Shown here: positions 10,383 to 26,213 of the stretch, piece after piece | How positions within the stretch are numbered: position 1 is the first letter of the stretch | Layout: each line of letters begins with the position of its first letter | IMG/VR virus record: IMGVR_UViG_3300025139_000008 | DNA length: 64,000 bases | From: an uncultured virus (IMG/VR IMGVR_UViG_3300025139_000008) | Lineage: Duplodnaviria > Heunggongvirae > Uroviricota > Caudoviricetes | Reading direction: 5' to 3' (one strand) | Translations under genes and position numbers: made by a program | Notes under the pieces: model-generated | What the model saw: the letters and a program-made list of their open reading frames with translations, nothing else | Database searches by the model: none | Told to the model about the DNA's origin: nothing

Positions 10383-10526
10383 TGGGGTGTCTCGACGCTA
10401 TCGCCCGGTTCTTTCTGGGCATCTTTCTGCTGATCCTTGCAACTGGGCTGGCCTCGTGCCAGCCCCTTTTCTTTCGGTAACCATTCGTTAAGGTTAACAG
10501 ATTGGCCCTAGACGTTAACCATTAAA

Positions 10527-10576
10527 GTGGAAAAAGTGCTTGACCGAATCACTTGAGCCGCCTAGAAACGAATCAG
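10527..10576 (+). promoter_or_regulatory. representative cassette promoter: A-tract, TTGACC, 17-bp spacer, TAGAAA, two GANTC sites
   Basis: TTGACC-gaatcacttgagccgcc-TAGAAAC-gaatca resembles the alphaproteobacterial sigma70 consensus (TTGAC / GCTANAWC). Confidence 0.85.
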
Positions 10577-10624
10577 CAATGCAGGGCGCGACTCGCACCG
10601 GGCAGCTACAAACGGAGACAGACC

Positions 10625-11032
10625 ATGCCGGAATTTTTGATCGAATACACGAAGACCGAAGTCACCCGCGAACGGGTGTGGATCGAAGCCGACTCGCCTG
10701 CTGAGGCGCTGCGGATTGTCGAAGAATACGAATTTGACAACTCGGAAAGCTACGAAGTCGATTCGCTGCGCTGGGAAATCAGCGACGCGGAAGTGCAGGG
10801 CGAGACGCCGGACGAAGATGATCCGGAACCGGACGAAACGGAACCGAACGCCTTGCCAGTCGCTATCACCTGCGACCGTGGCGACACCATCGAAGTCGTT
10901 CACCGGACCGCCACCATCGCCGAGGCGGAAGAATGGATTAGCGTTGGCCTTGCCGACGGTTTCCTTGACGAAAACGACGTTGACCAAGGCCGCTACGGAA
11001 TCGACGCGCCGGAAGAAATGGTTAACCCATGA
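10625..11032 (+). CDS. acidic hypothetical cassette protein
   Basis: GGAGACAGACC-ATG; very D/E-rich. Confidence 0.8.
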   Translation: MPEFLIEYTKTEVTRERVWIEADSPAEALRIVEEYEFDNSESYEVDSLRWEISDAEVQGETPDEDDPEPDETEPNALPVAITCDRGDTIEVVHRTATIAEAEEWISVGLADGFLDENDVDQGRYGIDAPEEMVNP

Positions 11033-11469
11033 GCCGGGCCATCGCAATCCTGATCGACCCGCAAGGCGAAGAATGGTTCATGGCTTACGGGCCGAAAACC
11101 AAGCTTCGCGACAAGGCGAGCCGCTACATCAGCGCCGAAGTGGCGATGAAAGCGGCGCGGGCGATCATATTCGGACACCCGGATGCGTTCTGGAATAGCG
11201 AGCGCCAGCACGCCGAAAACACCCGGCGGGAACACAAGGGCTGGTCCTACCGAATTGAGGAAGTGCCGGACCACGACCGCAAGCGGGAAGGTTTCAGCGT
11301 GGCACGTTATCAGGCCGGGACAAGCGTCTACCACTATCACGCAATCGGCGGGGGTTTCACCACGGAAGAGGGCCGGGCCGTTCTATGGCCCACCCGCGCC
11401 AAGGCGCTGGAAATAGCGCAAGGCACTGTCAGGCCGGAAGGCTGGAACGTTTGCGTGCAAGACTACTGA
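11029..11469 (+). CDS. hypothetical cassette protein
   Basis: ATGA coupling; followed by a terminator. Confidence 0.8.
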   Translation: MSRAIAILIDPQGEEWFMAYGPKTKLRDKASRYISAEVAMKAARAIIFGHPDAFWNSERQHAENTRREHKGWSYRIEEVPDHDRKREGFSVARYQAGTSVYHYHAIGGGFTTEEGRAVLWPTRAKALEIAQGTVRPEGWNVCVQDY

Positions 11470-11473
11470 GATC

Positions 11474-11499
11474 GGCGGGCTCCGGCCCGCCTTTCTTTT
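11474..11499 (+). terminator. intrinsic terminator (representative of about 20 in the array)
   Basis: GGCGGGC-TCCG-GCCCGCC followed by TTTCTTTT. Confidence 0.85.
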
Positions 11500-11620
11500 G
11501 CCGGTAACTAATCGTTAAGGTTAACGCATCGGTGTAAATTGTTAACCATCAAAGTGGAAAAAGTGCTTGACCGAATCACTTGAGACACCTAGAAACGAAT
11601 CACCACAACGGAGACGACCA

Positions 11621-11926
11621 ATGCAAAAGACCTTTCAAGTTTACAACGATCCCGGCCACGGCTGGTGCAAGGTGCCGCTCGCAGTCATCGAAGCGATCGG
11701 CCTGACTGAGGGACACTTTTCGTCCTATAGCTACCGCAACGGGGACGCGCTGTTCCTCGAAGAGGATTGCGACCTCGGCACCTTCGCAAAGGCTTTCACT
11801 GAAAAGACGGGCTCGCCGCCCTCTTTCAAAGATAACTACTGCAACGGACGCAGCCGCATTCGCAGCTTTGCGTCGGTCCGCTCGGGCGAAGGTTATGCAG
11901 CCATCGCAGCCGCAAGGGGATATTGA
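11621..11926 (+). CDS. hypothetical cassette protein (DPGHGW...LEEDCD)
   Basis: RBS after the promoter repeat. Confidence 0.8.
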   Translation: MQKTFQVYNDPGHGWCKVPLAVIEAIGLTEGHFSSYSYRNGDALFLEEDCDLGTFAKAFTEKTGSPPSFKDNYCNGRSRIRSFASVRSGEGYAAIAAARGY

Positions 11927-11927
11927 C

Positions 11928-12257
11928 ATGGGAGACTTGCTTGACCGTTGCCTTGCCCGTCCGGGGAAAAACTACGGACCCGGCTACGGCTTCGCCCTTG
12001 CCTATCTTGACGACAAGATGAACCCCGCTCACTTGCGGGACGGCGCTTGTCACATGGTCGGCAAGGCATATGGCCCGCACGGCTGGGCTGAGGCTCGCAA
12101 GAGTCCTGATCTGGCGGCATTCGTGCTTGCATACAGCGAAGCGGAATGCTTCGAAGACTTCGCAATCGAAGCGGCGCAATTGCTGCTCGAATGGGGAATG
12201 CGTGGCGATCCGGACGCCGCCACCGTGCTTCGCCTTTGCGGCCATCCGGGTTATTGA
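11928..12257 (+). CDS. hypothetical cassette protein
   Basis: Second gene of the cassette, followed by a terminator. Confidence 0.75.
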   Translation: MGDLLDRCLARPGKNYGPGYGFALAYLDDKMNPAHLRDGACHMVGKAYGPHGWAEARKSPDLAAFVLAYSEAECFEDFAIEAAQLLLEWGMRGDPDAATVLRLCGHPGY

Positions 12258-12414
12258 GAGAGGGGCTTCGGCCCCTTTCTTTTGTCCTTTACCTGCTGTT
12301 AAGGTTAACGCATAGGGGTAATTTGTTAACCATCAAAGTGGAAAAAGTGCTTGACCGAATCAGCGAATCGCCCTAGCAAGGAATCACCGCAATCAAGCGG
12401 CTGGAGACAAAACA

Positions 12415-12771
12415 ATGACCACTCGAATCAACAAGGGCCGCGACGGTTGGCAGGCCAAGACTGAAACCGATCTGCCCGGCCTCACCCTGACGGAAGGTGA
12501 AAAGACGAAGCAAGGGGTTCTGACTATCAGCACCCGCAAGACTTCGCGTGGCCTCGAAACCGGCGTCAGTGTCGCTTTCCGCGACGGCATGTTCCTGACG
12601 CATCGTCTTTACGAAGACTTCAACGCCCGTTATGCCGCCAGCACCGCACGCTGCACGGAAAAGGCGATCCGCTCTATGCATGACGAAGCGCTCGCCAATC
12701 TGGAAACCCTCAAGGGCCATGCATACGCCCACTATGGCATGACTGCCCCGGTGGAAAGCGAAGCGGCATGA
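12415..12771 (+). CDS. hypothetical cassette protein
   Basis: GGAGA RBS after the promoter. Confidence 0.8.
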   Translation: MTTRINKGRDGWQAKTETDLPGLTLTEGEKTKQGVLTISTRKTSRGLETGVSVAFRDGMFLTHRLYEDFNARYAASTARCTEKAIRSMHDEALANLETLKGHAYAHYGMTAPVESEAA

Positions 12772-13073
12772 TCGAGCGCGATCAATTCTTCGACATGTTG
12801 CAACGCGTCGCCAATGACGGCGTTTGCGGCCAGCCCCGGCCCTATTCGGGCCGGGCCATGTATGGCAAGCAGTGCATCGCAGTGTCCGGTGATTATCTGG
12901 ACGAATGGGCGCTTGCCGTCGCGCTGGGGCACCAGTGCCGTTGCTGGGGACTTGACGTTCGCGATCTGCCTTCGCCGGACAGCGATTCGCTTGGCCGAGG
13001 CCGCGTCCTCTATTGGCCGCAATACGAATGGCCGGACGACCAGCCCGAACCGGCGGACGAAGACGAAGACTAA
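12768..13073 (+). CDS. hypothetical cassette protein (YSGRAMYGKQC)
   Basis: ATGA coupling; terminator follows. Confidence 0.8.
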   Translation: MIERDQFFDMLQRVANDGVCGQPRPYSGRAMYGKQCIAVSGDYLDEWALAVALGHQCRCWGLDVRDLPSPDSDSLGRGRVLYWPQYEWPDDQPEPADEDED

Positions 13074-13219
13074 GGGAAGGCGGGGCAACCCGCCTTTTCT
13101 TTTGTTCTTTACCCGGCGTTAAGGTTAACGAAGAGTTACGATTAAGTGGAAAAAGTTCTTGACCGAATCAGTTACCTACCCTAGAACGAATCATCGCATT
13201 AAGCGATTGGAGACAGACC

Positions 13220-13492
13220 ATGCTTATGAACCCCTCTGTAAATATCAATGGCACCAGCCGCGAGGCTCTTGTCGATGCCCGCCGGGATGCCTTCGAAGCG
13301 ATCCACGCCGCCATGAATGCGCTTCGCGAAACCATGCCCCATGGCCGCGATTACGTGGGCCGGGCGCATCAATTCTCGGTGGACCGGGCGATCTACATGG
13401 AACGGCACGCCGTCCTGTCGAAGCTGTCCGAAGACCTGATGGACGAAGCGCTCGCGATCCAGAATGCCGGGGCACGGGGCGCTGTGGTATGA
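13220..13492 (+). CDS. hypothetical cassette protein
   Basis: GGAGACAGACC-ATG. Confidence 0.8.
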   Translation: MLMNPSVNINGTSREALVDARRDAFEAIHAAMNALRETMPHGRDYVGRAHQFSVDRAIYMERHAVLSKLSEDLMDEALAIQNAGARGAVV

Positions 13493-13729
13493 CCTACATT
13501 CATCACGAAACATTCAGCAGCCCGGAAGCCGATGAGAACGAAAACGAGCGGACGCCGAGAAACGCGCAATGGAATATGAGAGAGGGGCTTAGGCCCCTCT
13601 TTCTTTACCGGAAACCACACGTTAACCTTAACAGACCAGCCGAACTCGTTAACCATCTGTGTGGAAAAAGTGCTTGACCTAATACAGCGACTCGCCTAGA
13701 AACGAATCACTTGAAACGGAGACAAGACC

Positions 13730-14428
13730 ATGAAACTTTTCCCTGATGCCGCCGCCCTCGAATCATCCGGCTATCTTTTCCGGATCACTGACAACGGCGG
13801 CGAAACCTTTGACAGAATCACCGTCACGTTTTGCGATGGCGACGCGCTCGTTTGCACGCTCGGGACCATTTGCGCCCACGTTGAACGGGTTGACGTTCAA
13901 GTTGACGCAGAAGCCGTCGAATCCGGCGAGGCGCGGGACTTGCGCTGGATTGATCTGGACCCCGGCCTGCAATCGCGCATCCTTGCCGATCTGAATAACG
14001 GCTTTGCGGATTATATCGAAGCCGCGCCCGCAGCCGCGACTCGGGACGAAGCCCGCGACTGGGAAGGGCTATGGGATCACTACAGTGATAAACGTTCGCC
14101 GATTTATAAGTTGGGGGATTATTATCGCATCCGCGATGATGAGCGCGACAATGAAAACGACGATGACGATGACGCCTTTGAGACGCCAGCATTCGCTACG
14201 TTCCGGGACGCCTTATTCTACATGTTGCCAACCGACTATGACTTGAGCGGCCCGGAATATCACACCACGGTCGATCTCTGGGATACCGAAGGGGGACCGG
14301 CTGAACCTTGGGAAAAGGAACAGGATTGCGGTCAATGCGAAGGCACCGGCACAATCGAAGGCGGACCGGGCGGTGATGGGGAGGATGAGGAATGCCCCGT
14401 CTGCGATGGGAAGGGCAAGCAGGGATAA
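13730..14428 (+). CDS. acidic protein with C-terminal DnaJ-type CxxCxGxG zinc finger
   Basis: CGQCEGTG...CPVCDGKG; own promoter and terminator. Confidence 0.8.
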   Translation: MKLFPDAAALESSGYLFRITDNGGETFDRITVTFCDGDALVCTLGTICAHVERVDVQVDAEAVESGEARDLRWIDLDPGLQSRILADLNNGFADYIEAAPAAATRDEARDWEGLWDHYSDKRSPIYKLGDYYRIRDDERDNENDDDDDAFETPAFATFRDALFYMLPTDYDLSGPEYHTTVDLWDTEGGPAEPWEKEQDCGQCEGTGTIEGGPGGDGEDEECPVCDGKGKQG

Positions 14429-14587
14429 ACTAGGCGGGCTCCGGCCCGCCTCTTTTCCCGGTAACCCGGCGTTAACCTTAACAAATCGGACTAAGTTGTT
14501 AACCATCAAAGTGGAAAAACTACTTGACCGAATCACTTGTGCCGCCTAGAAACGAATCACCGCAATCAAGCGGTTGGAGACTTGACC

Positions 14588-15010
14588 ATGCCTAAGTGGC
14601 AATACAGTGGCGACCTTGATCTGCGAGAGGGCGGATTCTTCTGGCTGGACAACGGCGATGAAGACTGGGTGGCAGCCGTAAGCGTGACCCCTTGCAGCAG
14701 CGCAAGCGGGCCTGACAATCTGTTCTATATCGAGTCGGGCTCGATCTACTTTGCCCGCGATAAGTATGCTGACTATCTGTCAGTGATCGGCATGGAACCG
14801 GAAGACGCGACTCGCGAAGACGTGATCTACGCCGCGCACGCCTATGCTGGAATCGAGCGGGACCACGAAACGGTCGTCCGAATTGGTAAGGACGAAAGAG
14901 CGTCGGACCCTTGGCGGTGGAACGATTCGGGGTGGAACCCGGAACCCGATGTAGTGCTGCGCGGTAATGCGAGCCTGCAACGTTGGGTTGAACGCGAGTA
15001 TCTGTCATGA
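14588..15010 (+). CDS. hypothetical cassette protein
   Basis: GGAGA RBS after the promoter. Confidence 0.8.
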   Translation: MPKWQYSGDLDLREGGFFWLDNGDEDWVAAVSVTPCSSASGPDNLFYIESGSIYFARDKYADYLSVIGMEPEDATREDVIYAAHAYAGIERDHETVVRIGKDERASDPWRWNDSGWNPEPDVVLRGNASLQRWVEREYLS

Positions 15011-15255
15011 ACGCCGATGCAATCGAAGCGGAAGCCGCCGCAATCGCCCAAGCCGTTGCCGAGCGTAAGGCCCGGCCCTATCAGGCCGATGACAAGGCCC
15101 TAGTGGCGGCCTACCTTGCCGCCTCTGGTGTCGCGGGCTCACGCTCTTGGGAGATAACCCCGGAAGCGTTGGACTTGCCCTACCCTGTGTGGGCGGCCAT
15201 CCGGGCGGCCTACTTCGAAGCCGCGTGCAAGTGGAAGCGGGAGTCCGGCGCATAG
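15007..15255 (+). CDS. hypothetical cassette protein
   Basis: ATGA coupling. Confidence 0.7.
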   Translation: MNADAIEAEAAAIAQAVAERKARPYQADDKALVAAYLAASGVAGSRSWEITPEALDLPYPVWAAIRAAYFEAACKWKRESGA

Positions 15256-15377
15256 CCGGGCTCTTTCCCGGTAACCATCCGTTAACCTTAACAAGTCGTT
15301 ACCACTAAGTGGAAAAAGTGCTTGACCGAATCGCTTGCGTCACTTAGAAACGAATCAGTTGAAACGGAGACAGACCA

Positions 15378-15881
15378 ATGCCTGAATTTCAAATGGATAA
15401 AGAGGGAACCGTCAATGGGATGGTTTTCGCCGATCTCTCCATGATCTTTCAGGGTTACGTGGAAGCGATGCTTTTCACGGAAAACTCGCCCGGCAATAGC
15501 ATGGTCGATTGGCTGGATGATGAAGTGCAGGCAGGCTTGCGGGAAGGCACCATTGACGGCTGCATTCCGGAAGATGCGGGCTGGGGTGATATTCACCCCG
15601 AATCGGCTGAGCGGATGCAACTCGATTGCCTTAACTTCGAAGTGCAAGCCCGCGATCTACTGGCGCAAGCCTATGAGCGCGACTATGACGCGGCGCAAGC
15701 GGGCCGGGATTTCTGGTTCACTCGCAACGGTCACGGCGTCGGCTTTTGGGACCGCAAGGAACTGGAAGCGGACGGGCTGGGGGATGCTCTCACCACCATC
15801 GCCGAGTCGTTCGGGCAAGTGTATGTCGATTTCATCGCAGACCCTGAAAGCCCGACCGGTTACGGTTACGTCCACGTCTGA
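15378..15881 (+). CDS. acidic hypothetical protein (GRDFWFTRNGHGVGFWDR)
   Basis: Single-gene cassette with promoter, RBS and terminator. Confidence 0.85.
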   Translation: MPEFQMDKEGTVNGMVFADLSMIFQGYVEAMLFTENSPGNSMVDWLDDEVQAGLREGTIDGCIPEDAGWGDIHPESAERMQLDCLNFEVQARDLLAQAYERDYDAAQAGRDFWFTRNGHGVGFWDRKELEADGLGDALTTIAESFGQVYVDFIADPESPTGYGYVHV

Positions 15882-16035
15882 GAGGGGAGGGGCCTTGCGC
15901 CCCTCTCTTTTTGTCCGGTAACCTATCGTTAAGGTTAACGTGCCGGCCGATCTTCTTAACCATCAAAGTGGAAAAAGTGCTTGACCGAATCACTTGGGTC
16001 ACCTAGAAACGAATCAGTTGAAACGGAGACAGACC

Positions 16036-16275
16036 ATGCAAACAGCTATTGAACGCCTCAAGGAAGCCGCCAAGGACTCATTCATGAAGCCGCAATCCTA
16101 CATGGGTGCGGACATTCAGGAAGCGATTATGGAAGCCGGGCTCGATCTGGAAGACGACAAGATTTATGCACGCCTCTCGGCTCCGGGCTATCTCGATTGC
16201 ACTGATTGGAGCGGTCCCTTCGACACCACGGAAGAGGCCGCACAAGCCTTGCTGGACCTCTACTTCGAAGATTGA
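16036..16275 (+). CDS. acidic hypothetical protein (ARLSAPGYLDCTDW)
   Basis: Single-gene cassette. Confidence 0.8.
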   Translation: MQTAIERLKEAAKDSFMKPQSYMGADIQEAIMEAGLDLEDDKIYARLSAPGYLDCTDWSGPFDTTEEAAQALLDLYFED

Positions 16276-16434
16276 GAGTAGGGGCTTCGGCCCCTCTCTT
16301 TTTGCCCGGTAACCAGCCGTTAACCTTAACAGCGTGGTAACTAAGTGGAAAAACTTCTGGACGAATTGGCTTGCGAATCACCTACGACTCGCCTATCAAG
16401 AGTTCAGCGCAATTCCGCGCTTGGAGACGACCAA

Positions 16435-16884
16435 ATGTCATCACCTTTCCTACCTTCGGTGCAAGAGCAACTACAAGCTCGCCGCGACGAATCGGACGAC
16501 GGCTTCGCCTGCGTTCATATCGATACCTGTCTTTCATCCTTTCTGAATGACCACCACAATCGCGATGGCGAATTGCTGCTGGGCGCAATCGTCTTCGGCG
16601 ATACTTCCATCGGTGAAGTCAAGAACGAACTGCTGAGCGAGTTCGACTCGGTGGCTTACGATCTGGCTGGTGAGCGTGCTGGCTATGACCACGACAAGGC
16701 TCGGAAAGCGATCCTGCGTGCGTTTGTGGACGTTCATCCCATGGAACTGGACCGGAAAGCTTTCGATCCTTCGCTGGATTTCCGCGACGAAGAGGACGAC
16801 GGCTTCGGCTGCGAGGAATACTGTCAAGCGTGGTTCCTCATTACGTGGAACGTTCCGGAAGAGGAGGACGAGACATCGGATTGA
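16435..16884 (+). CDS. acidic hypothetical cassette protein
   Basis: GGAGA RBS; variant promoter. Confidence 0.8.
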   Translation: MSSPFLPSVQEQLQARRDESDDGFACVHIDTCLSSFLNDHHNRDGELLLGAIVFGDTSIGEVKNELLSEFDSVAYDLAGERAGYDHDKARKAILRAFVDVHPMELDRKAFDPSLDFRDEEDDGFGCEEYCQAWFLITWNVPEEEDETSD

Positions 16885-17075
16885 TCGACGCACTCGCCCG
16901 CCTAGGTGTGGGCGTCCTCTTCCTTATCCTTGCAACTGGGCTGGCCGCGTGCCAGCCCCTTTTCTTTTGGTAACCATTCGTTAAGGTTAACAACAAGTGG
17001 AGTTCGGTGGAAAAAGTTCTTGACCAAATCGCTTGCACCGCCTAGAAACGAATCAGTTGAAACGGAGACAGACCA

Positions 17076-17348
17076 ATGATCAAAGCAGCAGCAGATTTCA
17101 GCCACATCCGCCCGGACGAAGTAGCTGAGTGTTGGGATGGTGTTGACGCCGTTCCCGGCCTTTACAGCGCCCTTTGGGGTTGTGTGAACGATTACAAGGC
17201 CCCGTCGCCGGAAGTATCGGAAGAGCCCTGCCACGGTATGGATTCGGTCGCTGACTTCTGGGATCGGTTCTCGGATGATCACAAAGAGGCGCTTAACGCC
17301 CTCTGCGAACGGCACGCTGAGTTCTGGACCGGCCACGAGGAGTATTGA
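17076..17348 (+). CDS. acidic hypothetical cassette protein
   Basis: GGAGACAGACCA-ATG. Confidence 0.8.
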   Translation: MIKAAADFSHIRPDEVAECWDGVDAVPGLYSALWGCVNDYKAPSPEVSEEPCHGMDSVADFWDRFSDDHKEALNALCERHAEFWTGHEEY

Positions 17349-17350
17349 AC

Positions 17351-17596
17351 ATGAAGCTATTTTTCGTTGCTCACTTCAACGGCGAAAACTACGACTTGTT
17401 CGTGGTTGCCAACACGGTGGCGGAAGTGACTCAAGTCTGGCGAGACCATTACGAAATGCCGGACGAAACGCCCGAAATGATCTTCAAGGTAGCTGGCGCG
17501 AGCCCGGTCGGATCACGGGAAGAGCCCCATGCCTTCGAATGGCACGGGGTCAATCTCCCACGGGTTGGCGGCTCTCGACCGGCCAACCCGCGCTGA
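17351..17596 (+). CDS. hypothetical cassette protein
   Basis: GAGGAG RBS; terminator follows. Confidence 0.75.
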   Translation: MKLFFVAHFNGENYDLFVVANTVAEVTQVWRDHYEMPDETPEMIFKVAGASPVGSREEPHAFEWHGVNLPRVGGSRPANPR

Positions 17597-18199: not shown

Positions 18200-18369
18200 G
18201 CCTTCGGGCTCTCGGCAGAGGGGCAGGGTTTGGTCGCCCTGCCCCTCACCTTTTTCTGGTAGGGACCCGTTAACCTTAACAAATAGGGGTGGGTTGTTAA
18301 TCGTGGAAAAAGTGCTTGACCGAATCAGTGGATAATGGCACCAACGAATCACCACAAAGGAGACAGACC

Positions 18370-18726
18370 ATGCGAATCACTTACGAAATTGTGACCCCGG
18401 AAAGCGCCGAACAAGGCGACGCCGAAGAACGGGGATTCGTCCTTCCGGCTCGTTTCTTCCATATGAAGGTATCAATCGAACAGGTCGATGAACTGGATGA
18501 CTCAGACTTGGAGTGGAGCTTGCGGGACGCTGAACAATACCTAGGCCGTAATGGCATGGAGGATTCCGGTCGCTGGTTTTCCACAATTGACCCGGACCGC
18601 GATTATCAAACAGGTGCTGAAACCTATGAATCGCTGCACCCGTCGGACAACATCACACCGGCAAGCTACGAACGCCTTGCGCGTATCTTTTGCTGGGATC
18701 GCGACCCTCGACAGTTGCGAAGCTGA
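18370..18726 (+). CDS. acidic hypothetical protein (TYEIVTPESAEQGD)
   Basis: AGGAGA RBS after the promoter. Confidence 0.8.
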   Translation: MRITYEIVTPESAEQGDAEERGFVLPARFFHMKVSIEQVDELDDSDLEWSLRDAEQYLGRNGMEDSGRWFSTIDPDRDYQTGAETYESLHPSDNITPASYERLARIFCWDRDPRQLRS

Positions 18727-18839
18727 TGGGCTGCCTTGACGCCGTGGCCCGGCTGCTGCTGGGTGTGTTCTTACTGATCATCGCCGCCGGGGTTGCATCA
18801 TGCACCCCGGCATTTTTCTTTCTGGTAACGGTTCGTTAA
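18726..18839 (+). CDS. possible lipoprotein signal-peptide ORF, likely truncated
   Basis: MGCLDAVARLLLGVFLLIIAAGVAS-C lipobox; TGATG coupling; terminator hairpin lies inside the ORF. Confidence 0.4.
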   Translation: MGCLDAVARLLLGVFLLIIAAGVASCTPAFFFLVTVR

Positions 18840-18947
18840 CCTTAACAGAAGTGTTTCACTTGTTAACCAACTTTGAAGTGGAAAAAGTGCTTGACCGAAA
18901 CAGCGAATCACCCTAGACCGGGATCACCAACAACGGAGACAAACCAA

Positions 18948-19346
18948 ATGAGCGAACACGCAATCAGCAATGCACGGGGCTGGCTCTCGACAATCGTCGG
19001 GGCGATGGCCGCGCTGGAAGCCCTGAACGACGGAGCCGAATCGGCTGAGTTCGACGGGGAGACCTTCACCGACCCGGACGACGTGCAGAACCGGATTCAG
19101 GAAATGCCGCTTTCCGTGGAAGTGCGCGACGGATGGCGGGCACCGGGCGGCGAATCGGAGCCGGAAGAGTTCGCGATTCTGCTCTCGACCGGCGGACCGG
19201 CCTTGCGGGTATATGGTGACATCGGCGGCGAACCTTTCTTGCAGTGGCAGGACTGGGGCACGCCGTGGACCACCTACCATGACACCACCGAACAGGAAGA
19301 CGAGGCCCTGCAAGCCTTTGTCGGAATGTTCTATCTCGGCGAATAA
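18948..19346 (+). CDS. acidic hypothetical protein (LLSTGGPA...QDWGTPW)
   Basis: Single-gene cassette. Confidence 0.85.
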   Translation: MSEHAISNARGWLSTIVGAMAALEALNDGAESAEFDGETFTDPDDVQNRIQEMPLSVEVRDGWRAPGGESEPEEFAILLSTGGPALRVYGDIGGEPFLQWQDWGTPWTTYHDTTEQEDEALQAFVGMFYLGE

Positions 19347-19515
19347 GGAAAGGCGGGGCAACCCGCCTTTTTCTTTGGGTGTAAACATTCGTTAAGGTTA
19401 ACGGAATCGGTCTATCGTGTTAACCATTCTTCAAAGTGGAAAAAGTGCTTGACCGAATCGCTGGAAAATGCGAATCAGGGTTTACCGGAAGAGACCGGAA
19501 AACAGGAGACAGACC

Positions 19516-19821
19516 ATGAAGACACTTTTTGAAATCCCGACCCGTGGCGATGACATGACCATGCCGGGCGGCATCGCGCTGCGCTACAACGAAAACCGCG
19601 AAGAGTTTGTGGTCCACAACTACAACACCGACCGGGAGACAGGCACCGAACGCAATTACTTTGGTGGCGGCTACTACTGCTCGGGCACACCGGCGGAACG
19701 TCTGAGCGGGGCCATGGCAGACCTCAGCAAGCGGGTTGCACGTCAGAGCAATTACGATCTGGGCGGCTCCATTGATGTGGAAGCTTTGACCGGACTCCCT
19801 GCCCGGCTCTACGCCATCTAA
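19516..19821 (+). CDS. hypothetical cassette protein
   Basis: AGGAGACAGACC-ATG. Confidence 0.8.
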   Translation: MKTLFEIPTRGDDMTMPGGIALRYNENREEFVVHNYNTDRETGTERNYFGGGYYCSGTPAERLSGAMADLSKRVARQSNYDLGGSIDVEALTGLPARLYAI

Positions 19822-20038
19822 TACCGGGACCCGGCACCCTGAGAACAGGGGCCGGGTTTCCAAACACCGGCGGGACCCGGCCCACTGAGAACAAGGGCCG
19901 GGTTTCCAAATTGGTAACCAATCGTTAAGGTTAACAAATTGATGAAATGAGTTAACTATTAAAGTGGAAAAAGTGCTTGACCGAATCGCTGGGAACGGGC
20001 AAACGAATCAGGCGCACTCAAGCGCAGGAGACAGACCA

Positions 20039-20326
20039 ATGCCCAAACTTTACAATGCGGACATTAGCATCACCGCGACCGCCTATGTGATCGCTGAGAA
20101 CGAAGACGACGCACGGGAAAAGATTAGCGCCCTTCAAGGGGACTACATCGAATTTTCCGACCGCCGCCAGCAAGTGGCAGACGACCTGTTCGTGACCGGC
20201 GAAACCTATGGCCCTGATATGCCGAAACTGTCGCTGAGCCCTGCTATGACCATCAACCACAGCGCGACTCGCCCCTATGTCTGTCTGGTGCAGGAACTGA
20301 CCGGCGAAGAAGAGGATGTAGGATGA
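20039..20326 (+). CDS. hypothetical cassette protein
   Basis: AGGAGA RBS. Confidence 0.8.
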   Translation: MPKLYNADISITATAYVIAENEDDAREKISALQGDYIEFSDRRQQVADDLFVTGETYGPDMPKLSLSPAMTINHSATRPYVCLVQELTGEEEDVG

Positions 20327-20598
20327 TGCACGAAGCCAATCAATCCCGGATCGACTGGGCAAAGAACGCCCTCGATACCTTCACCATCGAAACCTATGGC
20401 GGACGGCCTTACTCGACGCTTGAAGCGCAATGCGCCGACTGCGAAGAAGGTGAGGGTGACGACTACACGGCCATCCAAGACCTTATCGGTGATTTGCTCC
20501 ATGTGGCCCACGAAAGAGGCTGGAACACAGCCGAACTAATCCGGCGGGCGGAAGCCAACTTCGTCTATGAAGCTGCACCGGACTATCAAGGCGACTAA
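20323..20598 (+). CDS. acidic hypothetical cassette protein
   Basis: Coupled ORF; terminator follows. Confidence 0.8.
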   Translation: MMHEANQSRIDWAKNALDTFTIETYGGRPYSTLEAQCADCEEGEGDDYTAIQDLIGDLLHVAHERGWNTAELIRRAEANFVYEAAPDYQGD

Positions 20599-20932
20599 GG
20601 GAGAGGGGCTTCGGCCCCTCTTTGCTTTTTGGTCGTTTTGGATCACCGCCGCTTTGGATCGACGCGACTTTGGATCGCCCCGGTTTTGGGTTTGGATCAT
20701 TTCGATTTTCATGATCGCCGCCATTTTGCAGGAGCCCGGACCGACCGACCGAACCAGCCGACCGAGCCCCACGCTCCCCACCAGCAGATGGTTAACGAAA
20801 CTGACCAATCTGTTAAGGTTAACGCCGGCGGCCGAATCCGTTAAGGAATATGGTTAACAGATTGGCTGATTTTGTTAACCATCAAAGTGGAAATAGTGCT
20901 TGACCGAATCAGCGAATCGGTCCATACCCGAA

Positions 20933-21046
20933 TGGTAAATGGCTGGACAGCCAGATCAAGGAACTGGATTGCGATTGGGGCGACCCTGTTTCACCTGAAT
21001 GCGAATCGCATCTCTATTGAGGGAGCGGGCTTCGGCCCGCCTCTTG
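20933..21046 (+). ncRNA. candidate small RNA (cassette with promoter and terminator but no RBS-led ORF)
   Basis: Promoter at 20900, hairpins including GGG-GCGA-CCC, terminator GCGGGC-TTCG-GCCCGC. Confidence 0.4.
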
Positions 21047-21187
21047 GCTGGTAACGGTTTGTTAAGGTTAACGGTCGGCCGGGATTTGTTAACCATCAAA
21101 GTGAAAAGTAAGTGGAAAAACTGCTTGACCGAATCGGCTTAGACTGGCACTAACGAATCACCGCAATCAAGCGGACGGAGAAAGACT

Positions 21188-21274
21188 ATGAGCCGACACC
21201 AGAAACGCCGCCTTGCCGCCAAGCGTGCGCGCATCGCCATTCTTTCCTCGTGGATCGCAAAGGGCCGCCGCTAA
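21188..21274 (+). CDS. 28 aa basic peptide MSRHQKRRLAAKRARIAILSSWIAKGRR
   Basis: GGAGA RBS after the promoter; TAATG coupling to the next gene. Confidence 0.65.
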   Translation: MSRHQKRRLAAKRARIAILSSWIAKGRR

Positions 21275-21540
21275 TGGCTGGCTTCTGGGATCGCGTGGAC
21301 ACCCTCGAAATGGTGGAACTCTACGCCGAGGACAACGGCCAGATTGCCAGCGAAGAGGAGCTTTCCAAGCGCTTTGACGAAGAAGTGCTTCCCGATGTGA
21401 TCGCACACTACGGCGAAAACGATTCGGTTGCTATCAATGAAGAATTTAGCAACTGGTCGGACATGCTGTGTAAGGACGGCGAAATTCACCCGGAACAATA
21501 CAATTCGTATTGCTACGTTGGAAAGCTGGCAGACGACTAA
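21274..21540 (+). CDS. highly acidic small protein
   Basis: Coupled start MAGFWD. Confidence 0.8.
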   Translation: MAGFWDRVDTLEMVELYAEDNGQIASEEELSKRFDEEVLPDVIAHYGENDSVAINEEFSNWSDMLCKDGEIHPEQYNSYCYVGKLADD

Positions 21541-21651
21541 GGCGAGGGGCTTAGGTCCCTCACCAAACTTTTTTTTTGTAATTAGTGGAAAAAGTGCTTG
21601 ACCGAATCGGTTGGTTCGCCTAGAAACGAATCAACAGCAACGGAGGCAGTC

Positions 21652-21756
21652 ATGCAGATCAACACCTACCACGTTTACATCAACAACACCTTTTCCGGGA
21701 TCATCTCGGCGGTGTCTTACCGGCAAGCGCGCCAGCGCGCTAAGGCCAAGGTTTGA
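21652..21756 (+). CDS. 34 aa peptide resembling the N-terminus of 26214..26486
   Basis: GGAGG RBS; sole ORF between promoter and terminator. Confidence 0.65.
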   Translation: MQINTYHVYINNTFSGIISAVSYRQARQRAKAKV

Positions 21757-21918
21757 GGGGAGGGGCTTCGGCCCCTCTTTCTTTTTGCCCGGTGAAATTT
21801 GTTAACCTTAACGAATATGGTTAACAAATTGACGTTTGGGGTTAACTATCAAAGTGGAAAAAGTGCTTGACCGAATCGGTGACTCGTGCGAAAACGAATC
21901 ATCAATCGGAGACAGATC

Positions 21919-22050
21919 ATGCAAAACATCCGCAAGAATCCCATTGCCGCCTCGCTCGCCAGCGCTCACCTCGCCCCTCGCAAGGTTCGCGCTCGTAAAG
22001 GCAAGGGCTCTTTCCGCCGCAACCCCAAGCATCGGGGAGTGGCGGCATGA
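21919..22050 (+). CDS. ArfA-like (alternative ribosome rescue factor-like) peptide, 43 aa
   Basis: MQNIRKNPIAASLASAHLAPRKVRARKGKGSFRRNPKHRGVAA carries the N-x-I..L.....R.....KGKGS-aromatic-x-R..KH signature; GGAGA RBS; below the ORF-track cutoff. Confidence 0.7.
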   Translation: MQNIRKNPIAASLASAHLAPRKVRARKGKGSFRRNPKHRGVAA

Positions 22051-22229
22051 GCCGCGCTCGCAACACCCTCGACTCCCGCTATAGCGTGCGCCTCGAATGG
22101 TGCGGACGTGCGACGCAGCAATGGGTTGCCCGCTTCTGTGGTGATTGGCTCGGATGCGACTCGACCCGCTCGGGCGCTGAGGAAATCGCCCGTCTGTATG
22201 AGCGCGACCGCTGGAGCATGGCAGCATGA
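22047..22229 (+). CDS. hypothetical protein (EWCG...WVARFCGDW)
   Basis: ATGA coupling. Confidence 0.75.
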   Translation: MSRARNTLDSRYSVRLEWCGRATQQWVARFCGDWLGCDSTRSGAEEIARLYERDRWSMAA

Positions 22230-22570
22230 GCGACCGCATCCGCCCCGTGACTTTCGACTCGGCCCAGATCGAGCCCTTTGCTGCTCGCATCATCGGCATA
22301 GCCGCTTCGCAATTCTGTCGCCTCAAAGAGCGCGAGAAAGAGACCGGAGAGAAGTCGGACCCCTTCGACATGGAAGATGCTCTTATGCATCTCTGGTGGG
22401 CTCTCAAGGGGCTTGATCACATTGCAATAGCGTTACGCGGCGGCAGGGACTGCGACGACGTGTCAGGCGTTCATTTTTCCATGGTGATGAATGCGGAACA
22501 CAGCAGGATTCGCCGCCTCATCATGGAAGAACTTGGAGTCGATCCCGGATCGCATCCGCGCTGGAAATGA
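22226..22570 (+). CDS. hypothetical cassette protein
   Basis: ATGA coupling; terminator follows. Confidence 0.75.
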   Translation: MSDRIRPVTFDSAQIEPFAARIIGIAASQFCRLKEREKETGEKSDPFDMEDALMHLWWALKGLDHIAIALRGGRDCDDVSGVHFSMVMNAEHSRIRRLIMEELGVDPGSHPRWK

Positions 22571-22777
22571 GGGGCTTCGGCCCCTCTCTTTTTGCCCGGT
22601 AACCCCACGTTAAGGTTAACCGATCGGGCGAAGTTGTTAACCATCAAAGTGAAATTGAAGTGGAAAAAGTTCTTGCACGAATCAGCGAATCGCCCTAGAC
22701 CCGAATCACCGGGCGGCACCTACTGACTGGCAGAGCAGCAGCAAGGCTCGCCCGGTAACTCACACAGGAGACAGGCT

Positions 22778-22939
22778 ATGTTCGAAGTCAAGACCACCCT
22801 GCGGACCTACAAGGTCGAAGCCAATCACATCAACGCCGCTTTCATCGCCGCAAACGTGCTGGCAGTGGAAGGCGAAGAAATCCTTTCCGTGGCCTATGCT
22901 GGGCCCGTCACGTTCATCATCGTGGAGATCGCGGCATGA
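22778..22939 (+). CDS. 53 aa hypothetical protein
   Basis: AGGAGA RBS; coupled to the next gene. Confidence 0.7.
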   Translation: MFEVKTTLRTYKVEANHINAAFIAANVLAVEGEEILSVAYAGPVTFIIVEIAA

Positions 22940-23154
22940 TCAGCAAGAAAGATGCCATCGCCAAGGCAATCGCGGCTGGAGCCTCGGAGGAGGAAATTGA
23001 TCGCCAAGCCGCAAACTACGTCCGCCAAGTCGGCACCGTGCCTTTCAACAACATGATTCGGGCTCTCAACATCGGCCCTTGGCACAACACCGTTGACGAC
23101 TGGACTCGGCTGGCAGCAGCCCTGACCGCGAGGGGATTGGCGCGAAAGCGCTAA
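22936..23154 (+). CDS. hypothetical cassette protein
   Basis: ATGA coupling. Confidence 0.75.
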   Translation: MISKKDAIAKAIAAGASEEEIDRQAANYVRQVGTVPFNNMIRALNIGPWHNTVDDWTRLAAALTARGLARKR

Positions 23155-23274
23155 TTCCTTAACGGAATTGATGAATTTGTTAAGGTTAACGCGAATTAAG
23201 AATAAAGTGGAAAAAGTGCTTGACCGAATCAGTTAACCATCCTAGAAACGAATCAACAGCAACGGAGACACACA

Positions 23275-23487
23275 ATGAAGATCAAGATCAAGACCACCGC
23301 TCGCTACACCGCAAAGCGCAAAGCCGCCATCATCGCCGATGTGGACAACGGCACCACCACCCTCGAAGACGTTTGCAGCCTGCACAACATCACAAGCGAA
23401 GAGTTTGCTGGCTGGCGTAAGTCGCTGGATCGCTCGGGACAGCAGGGGCTTCGGATCACTCGCCTGCAACACTACCGGGCAGCATAA
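23275..23487 (+). CDS. sciP: SciP / DUF1153 family small CtrA-inhibitory protein homologue
   Basis: RYTAKRKAAII..V..G..TLEDVC..HNITSEEF..W...LDRSG..GLR.TRLQHYR matches the SciP pattern RW...RKA.VV..V..G....EEAC..Y.LS.EEF..W....DRHG..GLR.TR.Q.YR. Confidence 0.85.
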   Translation: MKIKIKTTARYTAKRKAAIIADVDNGTTTLEDVCSLHNITSEEFAGWRKSLDRSGQQGLRITRLQHYRAA

Positions 23488-23637
23488 GGGGAGGGGCTTC
23501 GGCCCCTTTTCTTTTGGCCTTAACCCAGTGTTAAGGTTAACAGATCAGCCGAATTAGTTAACCAATTAGCTGGAAAAAGTGCTTGACCGAATCAGCGAAT
23601 CACCTTAGACCCGAATCACAAACAACGGAGACAGACC

Positions 23638-23880
23638 ATGCGTTTTCTTTCTGCAACCCTTATGGCCCTCGGCCTTTTAGCTGGTTATGGTGCTTTCTAC
23701 ATGACAGCGAACATTGACCTAACCCCGCTCGCCCCTGAGGCCCGGACCGTCACCCAGATGCTCTTTAACGCCCTTGCTATGTGCGGGCTTTGCCTGCCCG
23801 CCTTGTCGATGCTAGCGCTGCACGACGACGCAAACTTGCGCCGCCAGTATCCCCACCGCTATCGCAAGAATCGCCGCTAA
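23638..23880 (+). CDS. small two-TM membrane protein
   Basis: Two hydrophobic segments and a basic C-terminal tail. Confidence 0.75.
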   Translation: MRFLSATLMALGLLAGYGAFYMTANIDLTPLAPEARTVTQMLFNALAMCGLCLPALSMLALHDDANLRRQYPHRYRKNRR

Positions 23881-24044
23881 TGGAAACGCTGGCAGAATAT
23901 CGCCACAAGCGCGACCGGGCAATCGTTCAACGCCGCATGGGCGAAGAGCGCCGCCGCCACGTCAATCAATGCGTGGCTGACATCATCGCACAAGGTAAGA
24001 TGGAAGAGCGCCGCCAGACCATCCGCCGGGAGGAAGATCAATGA
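23880..24044 (+). CDS. hypothetical protein (METLAEYR...)
   Basis: TAATG coupling. Confidence 0.65.
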   Translation: METLAEYRHKRDRAIVQRRMGEERRRHVNQCVADIIAQGKMEERRQTIRREEDQ

Positions 24045-24241
24045 CAGACCGCCGATTCGTTATCGTGGAAAACGCCGGATATGAAGGCGAAAAAGACATC
24101 ACCCACTTTCTCACCTTGCGGGAGGCATTCGCCTATCAGCGCGGCCATTATGAGCCGGACGAGATCGAAGAATTGCACGTCGATATTCGCCAAGACTGGA
24201 CGGACGAAAACGGCGATTTTCATCAGGAATATGTCTATTAG
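24041..24241 (+). CDS. acidic hypothetical protein
   Basis: GGAGG RBS; coupled. Confidence 0.75.
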   Translation: MTDRRFVIVENAGYEGEKDITHFLTLREAFAYQRGHYEPDEIEELHVDIRQDWTDENGDFHQEYVY

Positions 24242-24308
24242 GTGGAAAAAGTGCTTGACCGAATCGATGGACTATGCGAAAACGAATCATCGAAACGGAG
24301 ACAAGCAA

Positions 24309-24503
24309 ATGACCACCATCCTGATCCTCGCAATCGCCTTCCTGATCACCGCCACCGTGGCAATCATCAAGGCCCGCGCCGAACTCGCCGCTCACGCCGC
24401 CGAACAGGCAAGCAAGCATATCCCCAACCCAACCGAATACACCGGCCCGCGCTTCACCGCACATGGCCGGGAAATCCAACAGACCGGACGCCGGATCATC
24501 TGA
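24309..24503 (+). CDS. single-TM small protein
   Basis: GGAGA RBS; hydrophobic N-terminus. Confidence 0.75.
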   Translation: MTTILILAIAFLITATVAIIKARAELAAHAAEQASKHIPNPTEYTGPRFTAHGREIQQTGRRII

Positions 24504-24659
24504 GAAAGGGGCGGGAGAAATCCCGCCCTTTTCTTTGTCTGGTAACCGGGTGTTAAGGTTAACAAAACGGTTAAATTCGTTAACCATCAAAGTGGAAAAA
24601 ATGCTTGACCGAATCGGCTGGTATGTTTAGACCCGAATCACTGGAAACGGAGACAGACC

Positions 24660-24857
24660 ATGAGCAATTCCACCGAACAAGCAATGGCCGCCGACCTCGA
24701 CCTTTGCGACATGATCCTTGCATTCGGAACGCCTGCCGCCAAGCGCAAGGCCCGCGCCCACCGCAAGGCTTGTTTCGCAGAAATCGCCCGGATGAACGCC
24801 GAGTCTGGGACTGACAAGCTGAGCGATGATGAATTACTCGCCGAATTGATGGCCTGA
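24660..24857 (+). CDS. hypothetical cassette protein
   Basis: GGAGACAGACC-ATG. Confidence 0.8.
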   Translation: MSNSTEQAMAADLDLCDMILAFGTPAAKRKARAHRKACFAEIARMNAESGTDKLSDDELLAELMA

Positions 24858-25045
24858 CAGGAACCGGCCCCTGACAACAGGGGCCGGGACCCTAATTCAC
24901 TGAGAAAAGGGGCCGGGCTCCAAAATCGTAAATTCAGGTTAACCTTAACCGATCGGCCGAAATCGTTAACCATCAAAGTGGAAAAAGTGCTTGACCGAAT
25001 CGGCTGGCGCGTTTAGACCCGAATCACTGGAAACGGAGCCAGACC

Positions 25046-25321
25046 ATGGAAAGATTCGAACTGACAGGCTCGGGCATCAGCGACGGGCAGAATCCGGAAA
25101 AACTGCTTGCCGCCGCGAAAAAGTGCGGCCTTCACAATCCCCGACTCGCCTATCACTTCGGCTGGTCGAATCAGCCGAAAACGATTCGTTTCAGCGCTGA
25201 AAGCTGGGAAGCTGCCGATAAGGTCGCCGATCTGGTGCGAACCGAATTTTACCCGGAAAATGCCGAGGGCCGTTTGTGCCCGATGATTCGGGCCTATCCG
25301 GTGAAAGCCCCGGAAGCCTGA
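25046..25321 (+). CDS. hypothetical cassette protein
   Basis: GGAG RBS; terminator follows. Confidence 0.8.
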   Translation: MERFELTGSGISDGQNPEKLLAAAKKCGLHNPRLAYHFGWSNQPKTIRFSAESWEAADKVADLVRTEFYPENAEGRLCPMIRAYPVKAPEA

Positions 25322-25494
25322 TCCCGGAAAAGCCCGATTCGCCGAATCGGGCTTTTTCTTTGGCGGTAATCTCTGGTTAACCTTAATAAAACGGCGAAAT
25401 TCGTTAACCCTAAAAATCGGGATTTTCTGGAAAAAGTGCTTGACCGAATCGGCCTTTTCTGGAAAAACCGAATCACCGCAAACGGAGAAATGAC

Positions 25495-25650: not shown

Positions 25651-25719
25651 CCTACTCTGTCCTGCCCGGCCTAGGCTGTGTGCGCGGCTCTCGGCTGCTA
25701 TGGATCAAGGTCATTTTAG

Positions 25720-26207: not shown

Positions 26208-26213
26208 AACAAC

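Follow-up and report, generated by a model that had tools for sequence, protein, structure and literature searches.

The window analysed here is a 64,000-nucleotide stretch of DNA from the uncultured Caudoviricetes virus IMGVR_UViG_3300025139_000008. Between its terminase and structural genes lies a block of 27 small cassettes, most of which carry an array of TTAA-type half-sites upstream of a promoter, and one of which encodes a short relative of the CtrA inhibitor SciP. The genes run in the order terL (6869-8599), array region (8.6-26.6 kb), portal (29713-31476) and major capsid (32863-33786). Comparison of the structural half with Erythrobacter phage XM05 showed that 68% of the 30-50 kb query is covered at 82.7% identity; the same half also matches Erythrobacter phage vB_EliS-L02 (L02) and Sphingobium phage Lacusarx. 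The available text of PMC5648845 describes the terminase genes of Lacusarx as adjoining a terminal-repeat region of ~10.5 kb, which is the layout seen in the window. The source of the window is a Lacusarx/XM05-type siphophage of Sphingomonadales, and the cassette block is its early, terminal-repeat-like region. The closest record is the IMG/VR contig G001. Aquifer metagenome DNA runs (n = 18) contain 0.99 of the sampled words of the window, and aquifer metatranscriptome runs (n = 4) contain 6-11% of them.

Architecture of the cassette promoters

Each cassette consists of a terminator, an array, a promoter, a conserved leader with a ribosome-binding site (RBS) and one to three small genes. Alignment of the copies showed a module of ~135 bp. 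After the terminator, the upstream part of the module contains (G)GTAAC, five variable nucleotides, a C, the element GTTAA-(GG or CC)-TTAAC (hereafter the 12-mer, KTAA-N2-TTAA in its general form), 15 variable nucleotides and GTTAACCAT. The downstream part continues with the A-tract CAAAGTGGAAAAAGTGC, the -35 element TTGACC directly followed by GAATCA, a 17-nt spacer, a TAGAAA-like -10 element, a CGAATCA and a leader ending in ACGGAGACAGACC-ATG with the RBS. With either centre, GTTAA-SS-TTAAC presents TTAACC on one strand or the other.

The promoters were defined with a matrix built from 25 of the cassette copies themselves, a partly circular procedure that found two further copies. The resulting 27 promoters all lie on the plus strand between 10059 and 25429, with none on the minus strand and none outside that span of the window. 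The -35 element is TTGACC in 24 of the 27 promoters, and TTAACCA lies upstream of 15. The 12-mer precedes 25 of them (it is absent at 21598 and 24255) and is thus more general than the 7-nt-spaced box described below, a point that the first-pass annotation of this DNA had missed. A host sigma-70-type promoter is the best explanation for the cassette promoters. Their sequence resembles the Caulobacter housekeeping consensus (TTGACGS...GCTANAWC), and the A-tract next to the -35 element resembles an UP element. A scan with a standard E. coli-type promoter gave nothing relevant (7 matches against 8.8 expected). The invariant AAAGTGGAAAAAGTGC beside each -35 element (for example 10054-10069) reads TTTTCCACT on the bottom strand, which agrees with the E. 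coli DnaA-box consensus at 8 of 9 positions; an A-tract of the UP-element kind is just as possible.

The units are held at fixed distances from the promoter. Relative to the first base of the -35 hexamer they start at -63, -52, -46 and -25, with the 12-mer at exactly -52 in 11 promoters and TTAACCA at exactly -25 in 11. The approximate unit positions are -98 (GTAAC, the soft unit), -87/-81 (12-mer) and -60 (GTTAACCAT), and the sites together span about -98 to -53. The offsets between half-sites are similarly sharp: 6 (seen 24 times), 11 (17), 17 (18), 21 (19), 27 (17) and 38 (12); apart from 11, which is that of the N7 box, these offsets had escaped the first-pass annotation. GTTAAC occurs 72 times in the window, and 66 of these copies are in 8.6-26.6 kb.

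The first-pass annotation had described GTAA-N7-TTAA boxes with an invariant 7-nt spacer after the terminators and upstream of most cassette promoters. A search for KTAA-N7-TTAA on both strands gave 27 rows, against 1.09 ± 1.42 in 100 dinucleotide shuffles (largest 5); these are 23 distinct places, because four palindromic TTAA-N7-TTAA sites are listed twice. The plus strand has 17 boxes between 10477 and 25380, including all 16 that had been named, three of which had been placed one base off (they start at 15918, 18825 and 24928). Each box lies a few bases past the T-run of a terminator, and 17 of the 27 promoters have a box at most 100 nt upstream of the -35 element. The spacer is indeed rigid, since the KTAA-to-TTAA offsets 9, 10, 12 and 13 are seen only 1-2 times each. 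All 17 boxes have exactly N7; 16 are GTAA/TTAA and one, at 23520-23534, is TTAA/TTAA, so that the copy singled out earlier as perfect is the sole such copy among the cassettes. The additional half-sites reported downstream are also present: of the 18 plus-strand copies of TTAACCAT, 17 fall in 8600-26600. Four short modules pair the second TTAA of the 12-mer at N7 with GTTAC, GTAAC or ATAAC instead of with the distant GTTAACCAT, and minus-strand N7 matches of short modules lie at 13125 and 15288. As all half-site offsets are sharp, the N7 pair is one spacing of several within a rigid array.

Conservation of the half-sites

Comparisons among the paralogous modules showed that the half-sites are invariant and that the spacers carry almost no information. 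Similarly, alignments of orthologous upstream regions of the window and XM05 showed diverged spacers, with the 12-mer and GTTAACCA kept. This pattern points to selection on the half-sites rather than to recent copying. The 12-mer is also present in Lacusarx. A scan of IMG/VR for the 12-mer followed at N15 by GTTAACCA gave 114 stretches with 130 unique instances.

The centre of the 12-mer is GG in 23, CC in 13 and CG in 2 of 38 copies. In five of nine comparable orthologous pairs of the window and XM05 the centre flips between CC and GG (for example at 14472, 16981, 17640, 18836 and 23531), so the maintained unit is TTAACC on either strand. The flips occur without GC or CG intermediates (2 CG in 38) and could be loop inversion by template switching, or cassette conversion, under selection for TTAACC.

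The content of the cassettes turns over fast within these conserved regulatory frames. Among 25 first genes, 13 have no XM05 homologue (E <= 1e-5) and 12 have one.

Enrichment of CtrA and SciP motifs

The arrays were scanned with the C. crescentus CtrA and SciP-motif matrices derived from chromatin immunoprecipitation (Fumeaux et al. 2014, supplementary file 4, PMC4083442), which describe Caulobacter and not the host. With the CtrA matrix, 37 sites in the window score at least 10 bits, and 33 of them are in 8600-26600, against 1.14 ± 1.05 in Markov-1 simulations of the region. The cassette boxes score 9.7-15.1 of 19.7 bits, and their flanks agree with the extended G-TTAA-C...G-TTAA-C of the Caulobacter matrix. 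The SciP motif, (G/A)TTAACCAT(A/G), has 80 matches of at least 10 bits, 73 of them in the region, against 3.3 ± 1.9 simulated. It is fitted both by GTTAACCAT and by the 12-mer (CGTTAACCTTA), and sites with a perfect core reach 20.9 of 22.6 bits. The two Caulobacter matrices are thus 20-30-fold enriched.

The SciP-type motif of the CC-type cassettes starts 12 nt further on than the CtrA matrix match does; SciP-CtrA interdistances of +/-12 are listed for fliQ, fliI and fliO (PMC4083442). The available text of the same paper describes the SciP motif as 'half a CtrA box' that often overlaps the CtrA site, and indicates that it was Fumeaux et al. 2014 who derived the TTAACCAT motif, the proposal of Tan et al. 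(2010) having been TGTCGCG.

A SciP-like gene among the cassettes

The open reading frame (ORF) at 23275-23487 on the plus strand encodes 70 residues and matches Pfam DUF1153 (PF06627) at 71.5 bits, above the cut-off of 23.5. A profile search of 1.84 billion representative sequences gave 2920 matches, and of the 26 nearest bacterial relatives that were sampled, 19 score above the 100-bit cut-off of NCBIfam NF051866 ('CtrA inhibitor SciP'). The phage protein is 40-47% identical to bacterial SciP relatives over the helix-turn-helix (HTH) core. The gene is also carried by G001, XM05, G088, G089 (in a longer form) and G090. A tblastn search of 50,697 phage records with the protein found XM05 only, and a word-indexed protein search gave only eight close relatives. 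A scan of genome contigs for array-type DNA sites gave one weak locus, in a metagenome-assembled genome that, like the rest of its phylum (86 genomes), has no SciP.

The promoter of the SciP-like gene (23180-23256) has a GG 12-mer at 23180 and a -35 element at 23220, and it is the sole promoter of the 27 with GTTAACCAT inside the spacer that separates the -35 element from the -10 (23232-23240). This spacer site is conserved in the window, G088 and G090 despite different upstream sequence. Its position within the gene's own promoter looks like autoregulation of the SciP-like gene.

The longer gene belongs to a 163-kb IMG/VR phage with terminal repeats (locus G089:C1:133000-133650). It keeps part of the bacterial N-terminus (..LSDLPAANNVRW..), and its promoter is without the GTTAACCAT spacer site. 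The longer form suggests that the gene was captured from a host and then truncated in the other phages.

No OmpR-type winged-helix protein, GcrA or PF01555 methyltransferase is encoded in G001, XM05 or Lacusarx; the CtrA, CcrM and GcrA inputs would therefore be the host's. Complex prediction with C. crescentus CtrA (Swiss-Prot) and an alignment of the phage SciP-like protein returned a score of 0.00 ('no answer'), which speaks neither for nor against binding. Among the listed papers on SciP, CtrA, phages and DUF1153, surveyed by titles and the openings of abstracts, none reports a phage SciP and none has 'DUF1153'. The phage SciP-like gene and the GcrA-type sites appear to be new.

GANTC sites flanking the -10 element

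The two CGAATCA of each promoter, which flank the -10 element in a fixed orientation, are the reverse complement of TGATTCG. The available text of PMC4647560 gives TGATTCG, and more broadly YGAKTCK, as the methylation site preferred by GcrA. GANTC occurs 135 times in 10001-26600, with 82 YGAKTCK on the bottom strand and 45 exact TGATTCG; the other 46 kb have 113 GANTC, 9 bottom-strand YGAKTCK and 1 exact TGATTCG. A YGAKTCK-type GANTC lies at +6 from the start of the -35 element in 22 of the 27 promoters and at +27 to +31 in 21 of the 27. The relatives have 36 (XM05), 53 (L02) and 10 (Lacusarx) CGAATCA.

A high-ranked GANTC site thus lies within 40 bp of the inferred, unmapped transcription start site. 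Counted from the assigned -10 element, the GANTC centres are at about -27 and about -3; published GcrA-site positions are -20 ± 1 or -30 ± 2 and +5 to +30, with none over the -10 element (PMC9976885). The cassette promoters may thereby receive a further input from the host, through methylation and GcrA.

Proposed function and alternative explanations

We read the array as a composite operator for host CtrA and SciP-type factors on sigma-70-type early promoters, possibly with an input from methylation and GcrA, and put the probability of this reading at about one half. The array probably ties early expression to the host CtrA pathway; which proteins bind, and whether they activate or repress, we infer from the sequence. 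Host CtrA~P would bind the N7-spaced pair, and SciP-type proteins, namely host SciP and in this lineage also the truncated phage SciP, would exert their effect at the TTAACC(A/T)T extensions. Early transcription would thus track CtrA-phosphorelay activity, which in the host order controls motility and lifestyle and not an indispensable cell cycle. Feedback from the phage SciP-like protein would reach the cassettes and, through the GTTAACCAT in the spacer, the protein's own promoter. The two GcrA-preferred CcrM-type sites flanking the -10 element would let methylation and GcrA act as the second host input.

The stronger claim of the first-pass annotation, that the whole early region reads host cell-cycle state, is unsupported for the host order. 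It goes too far, since Sphingomonadales can do without CtrA: the available text of PMC8116508 reports loss of ctrA without a growth defect in Sphingomonas melonis. According to the available text of PMC9437464, cell-cycle control by CtrA is known only from Caulobacterales and Hyphomicrobiales. The claim should read CtrA-phosphorelay (motility/lifestyle) state.

An extended version would join three arms, the CtrA half-sites, a phage-captured SciP with autoregulation and the GcrA/CcrM sites, in one ~135-bp module. The methylation of the injected genome, acquired in the previous host cell, and the CtrA~P level of the new host would together gate the early programme, and the phage SciP would then shut off the cassettes and perhaps the host CtrA regulon. 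This joint version is doubtful as a whole.

Several observations weigh against the composite operator. Concerning the CtrA sites, the invariant element TTAA-N2-TTAA, with its 6-bp offset, is not the canonical CtrA geometry, and the GTAA that begins all but one of the N7 boxes has a G at a position where the CtrA matrix has G in ~12% of sites. The promoter, at a long distance downstream of the array, already possesses a near-consensus -35 element and an A-tract, and no unit overlaps the -35 element, unlike in the typical CtrA-activated class; upstream CtrA sites do exist at pilA, as described in the available text of PMC11264516. The matrices are those of Caulobacter and not of the host. The left half-site (KTAA) is kept in only four of eight window/XM05 pairs (GGTTACC at 19977). 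The cassette region of Lacusarx has one match to the N7 pattern, though it has the 12-mer 14 times, and the left half-site of L02 is GGTAACC, often GGTTACC, CTTACC or TTTACC, the latter forms of which break the N7 register. Among the 130 IMG/VR instances only 55 have GTAA (41) or TTAA (14) at -11, which is far above chance and not universal. The right half-site, as part of the 12-mer, is always kept in the related genomes, and the left half is not conserved with it. Because of this variation of the left half, the N7 box is real but the softest element of the array, and the core is the 12-mer with GTTAACCAT.

Concerning the SciP and GcrA arms, the phage SciP-like protein scores 67.7 bits on NF051866, below the equivalog cut-off of 100, and aligns to profile positions 28-90 of 90 (the relatives in G001 and XM05 score 66.3 and 64). 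It is without the N-terminal ~30 residues of bacterial SciP, and neither Lacusarx nor L02 has a DUF1153 gene, though both have arrays. The second GANTC, at about -3, is outside the published +5 to +30, and the first roughly fits -30 ± 2. According to the available text of PMC9437464, none of the phage subsets shows a positional asymmetry of its GcrA, SciP or DnaA sites. The earlier identification of the boxes as CtrA motifs thus stands in part: the matrix enrichment, the SciP-like gene and the precedent of phiCbK-like phages favour it, whereas the GTAA half-sites, the soft left half and the far upstream position do not.

The main rival, possible and clearly behind the composite operator, is that a phage-specified protein binds the 12-mer and has the array as its operator, either an early or virion protein or the SciP-like HTH protein alone repressing at GTTAACC(A/T)T, and that the resemblance to CtrA sites comes only from the TTAA core. 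The invariance of a pseudo-palindromic 12-mer with a 6-bp offset next to a soft left half favours such an operator. With their densely packed 12-mers, the clusters at 8632-8784 and 9789-10052 have the look of iteron or operator banks, the GTTAACCAT in the spacer of the SciP-like gene's promoter looks like classical autorepression, and most IMG/VR arrays are in one phage lineage, 77 of the 130 instances having the same TTGAC-GANTC promoter downstream. However, the SciP-like protein is the sole recognisable DNA-binding protein among 38 early ORFs and is absent from the array-bearing Lacusarx and L02. Repeats of GTTAACCAT also occur in an unrelated Sphingomonas phage (available text of PMC9437464), and the units fit two independent host-factor matrices. 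If a phage protein binds instead, the arrays would be an ordinary early-gene operator system.

Binding by another host factor, either host SciP alone or another Sphingomonadales HTH or nucleoid protein specific for GTTAAC-type hexamers, is unlikely. The elements are conserved across Erythrobacter and Sphingobium phages, no CtrA-type protein was found encoded in G001, XM05 or Lacusarx, and the fit of the SciP-motif matrix to the 12-mer and GTTAACCAT is no worse than that of the CtrA matrix to the N7 box. However, the binding of SciP to DNA without CtrA is disputed (available text of PMC4083442), and no further candidate motif family was identified.

It is more unlikely still that the repeats serve DNA transactions, as recombination boundaries for cassette swaps or as replication or packaging iterons near the terminal repeat. 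The turnover of first genes between conserved boundaries would suit such a role, as would the position of the clusters next to terL and a separate iteron array (9570-9744). However, the fixed distance from the array to the -35 element and the strict helical phasing indicate an action on the promoter, and the promoter and terminator sequences alone would give homology for recombination. The long conserved promoter and leader in all copies do indicate common descent, but that the repeats are functionless and merely hitch-hiked with the promoter during cassette duplication is highly improbable, given randomised spacers between invariant half-sites among paralogues and between orthologues and the persistence of the units in Lacusarx and L02 despite diverged promoters.

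If CtrA and SciP act at these promoters, the composite operators would form a clean natural test set for the combination of CtrA-type and SciP-type sites, with 27 paralogous promoters per genome, more than 100 further instances in IMG/VR, and natural variation in half-site, orientation and module length. As ctrA can be deleted in the host order, genetic tests are feasible. A phage SciP, if true, would, as far as searched, be the first viral component of the inhibitor type for the CtrA pathway and would complement the known phage homologues of GcrA and CcrM. From the arrangement of the GANTC sites, sensing of DNA methylation by early promoters of phages seems conceivable.

Individual cassettes and other features of the window

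All modules lie on the plus strand. The full module at 10477-10576 has the N7 box at 10477, a GG 12-mer at 10488, TTAACCA at 10515, the -35 element TTGACC at 10540, GANTC at 10546 and 10570, and the -10 sequence TAGAAAC. Full modules with a GG 12-mer are also found at 11504-11603 (box 11504, TTAACCA 11542, -35 11567), 15918-16017 (box 15918, TTAACCA 15956, -35 15981), 19381-19485 (box 19381, TTAACCA 19420, -35 19449) and 24542-24641 (box 24542, TTAACCA 24580, -35 24605), and those with a CC 12-mer at 14461-14560 (box 14461, TTAACCA 14499, -35 14524), 18825-18927 (box 18825, TTAACCA 18863, -35 18891) and 24928-25027 (box 24928, TTAACCA 24966, -35 24991). The full module at 21051-21161 contains an 11-nt insertion (box 21051, GG 12-mer, TTAACCA 21089, -35 21125), and that at 22599-22709 has a -35-like TTGCAC at 22673 (box 22599, GG 12-mer, TTAACCA 22637). 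The full module with the sole perfect TTAA-N7-TTAA (23520-23619; box 23520, GG 12-mer, TTAACCA 23558, -35 23583) follows the SciP-like gene.

Short modules occupy 13119-13195 (GG 12-mer, with its second TTAA at N7 from GTTAC, minus strand 13125-13139; -35 13159), 15271-15358 (two N7 pairs, 15271 on the plus and 15288-15302 on the minus strand; CC 12-mer, -35 15322) and 16970-17056 (box 16970, GG 12-mer, -35 17020). Two further short modules have divergent promoters, at 16309-16402 (box 16309, CC 12-mer) and 17629-17725 (box 17629, GG 12-mer, -35-like TTGCGT 17689). Other modules vary at the left half-site: that at 12299-12387 is without the KTAA left half and has TTTA at -11 (GG 12-mer, TTAACCA 12326, -35 12351), that at 13622-13710 has GAAA at -11 (CC 12-mer, TTAACCA 13649, -35 13674), and that at 18270-18352 has GTAG at -11 (CC 12-mer, -35 18316). 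The module at 19914-20013 has the N7 box at 19914, a GG 12-mer, GTTAACTAT and a -35 element at 19977, and the one at 25366-25476 has a box at 25366, the degenerate 12-mer GTTAACCTTAAT and a -35 element at 25440. An irregular module at 20781-20936 has a 12-mer at 20813, several GTTAACCAT in both orientations and a -35 element at 20900. The promoters at 21583-21634 (-35 21598) and 24240-24291 (-35 24255) are without a TTAA array.

Two clusters on the plus strand stand outside the cassettes. The first (8632-8784), just past terL, contains five GTTAASSTTAAC 12-mers and two GTTAACCAT, in 43-bp and 27-bp tandem units. The second (9789-10052), before the first cassette promoter, contains ten 12-mer-type sites, perfect TTAA-N7-TTAA at 9860, 9922 and 9952, and GTTAACCAT at 10044. 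The iteron array at 9570-9744 sits between two GTTAAC clusters, ~1 kb 3' of terL. In it TATGGATCGAGGCCATTTT is repeated ~7 times, with unit lengths of 18, 21 and 28 bp; the longest unit runs for 2.8 copies at 100% identity. A role as a pac site, a boundary of the terminal repeat or an origin is possible. Outside the early region, an isolated CGTTAAGGTTAAC (32732-32744, plus strand) lies ~120 nt upstream of the major capsid gene, and an isolated GTTAACCAT (37217-37246, plus strand) is flanked by TTGACA and TACCAT where the structural region resembles a promoter; these units may be late-gene control points.

At the far end of the block, an internal direct repeat (25717-26170) contains one 21-mer scored at both 25880 and 26150 in the CtrA matrix scan, and GTGGAAAAA at 25849 and 26119; the last cassettes therefore seem duplicated. 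Positions 25717-25829 were passed over as repeated when reads were mapped. The block ends (26480-26600) with a bidirectional terminator with a 14-bp stem, followed by four overlapping GANTC sites (CGATTCGCGTGCGAATCGAATCGATTCG).

Contigs from the RNA runs were not counted as promoter evidence. None of the 22 listed pieces overlaps the array and core-promoter segments, against 10.5 ± 2.3 under random placement, and seven start 9-31 nt past predicted starts. The pattern was discounted because the contigs are short, because assemblies break at a 27-fold repeated promoter whether RNA or DNA is sequenced, and because DNA was possibly in the library.

Searches of the 38 early ORFs against Pfam and PHROGs found no member of a Pfam family besides the SciP-like and an ArfA-like protein, and no other regulator. 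The ArfA-like ORF (21919-22050, 43 residues) scores 30.8 bits with the Pfam family of alternative ribosome-rescue factor A (ArfA; E 2e-7, cut-off 25.5 bits) and has an XM05 homologue of 57.9% identity. It is driven by its own cassette promoter, in a module without an N7 box (21802-21903, plus strand) that has a CC 12-mer, extra GTTAAC sites and a -35 element at 21867. Between the early region and the portal gene, the ORF at 28794-29318 is lipid desaturase-like (Pfam Lipid_desat, 117 bits) and is a possible auxiliary metabolic gene.

Comparison with known systems

T4-type phages have PeSL cassettes, mobile regulatory units in which variable small early ORFs each stand between a copy of an early promoter and a terminator stem-loop. 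The cassettes of the window are like these in that the content shuffles and the frames are conserved, and unlike them in phage group and promoter type; to our knowledge, no upstream transcription-factor array has been described for T4-type PeSL cassettes.

The two GcrA-type sites of each cassette promoter resemble those of GcrA/CcrM promoters (Haakonsen et al. 2015, PMC4647560; Wu et al. [quoted passage not shown] Unlike GcrA promoters, which mostly have one site, the promoters of the window have two, the second at about -5 to -1. The phiCbK-like phages encode GcrA, whereas the lineage of the window does not. Bacterial SciP (NF051866) has ~90-100 residues with an N-terminal LPPP stretch, whereas the 70-residue form without this stretch is phage-encoded.

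The arrays are like the S-phase CtrA/SciP promoters of Caulobacter (PMC4083442) in that a CtrA half-site is extended to (G/A)TTAACCAT(A/G) and a SciP motif overlaps or adjoins the CtrA site. In particular, the GTAAC-N6-GTTAACCTT of the CC-type cassettes equals the +/-12 class of fliQ, fliI and fliO. However, those are chromosomal flagellar and chemotaxis promoters of another bacterial order, and the window has three to four units per promoter, in either orientation, at about -98 to -53.

The closest parallel is the 'lytic deferment' described by Mascolo et al. (2022, PMC9437464). The available text of that paper reports that CtrA sites cluster in the intergenic direct-terminal-repeat (DTR) or gap regions of several phages of Alphaproteobacteria, that C. 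crescentus CtrA~P binds sites of phiCbK, Cp1R7A-A1 and Delta and regulates the genes, with electrophoretic mobility shift and reporter data for terminal-repeat sites of phiCbK-like phages, and that a TGCGTTAACCAT repeat is present in the unrelated Sphingomonas phage MMDA13. For Lacusarx, 29 CtrA sites are predicted with a normalised entropy of 0.78, and all DTR sites are intergenic (PMC9437464, Table S7). As in the phiCbK-type phages and Lacusarx, the intergenic TTAA-type sites of the window are concentrated among small unknown early genes beside the terminase. The window departs from the published pattern in that the canonical TTAA-N7-TTAA occurs in only one of 17 cassette boxes; what is conserved is the TTAA-N2-TTAA 12-mer with GTTAACCAT, held in a rigid array a long way upstream of the -35 element. 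It also has a SciP-like gene and GcrA-type GANTC sites flanking the -10 element; the available text of PMC9437464 contains no phage SciP. As far as searched, no publication describes the rigid module of several units, the pairing of GcrA-type sites, or the SciP-like gene and the operator-like site that goes with it, and the CtrA idea itself is already published for related phages, of which the window is a further case.

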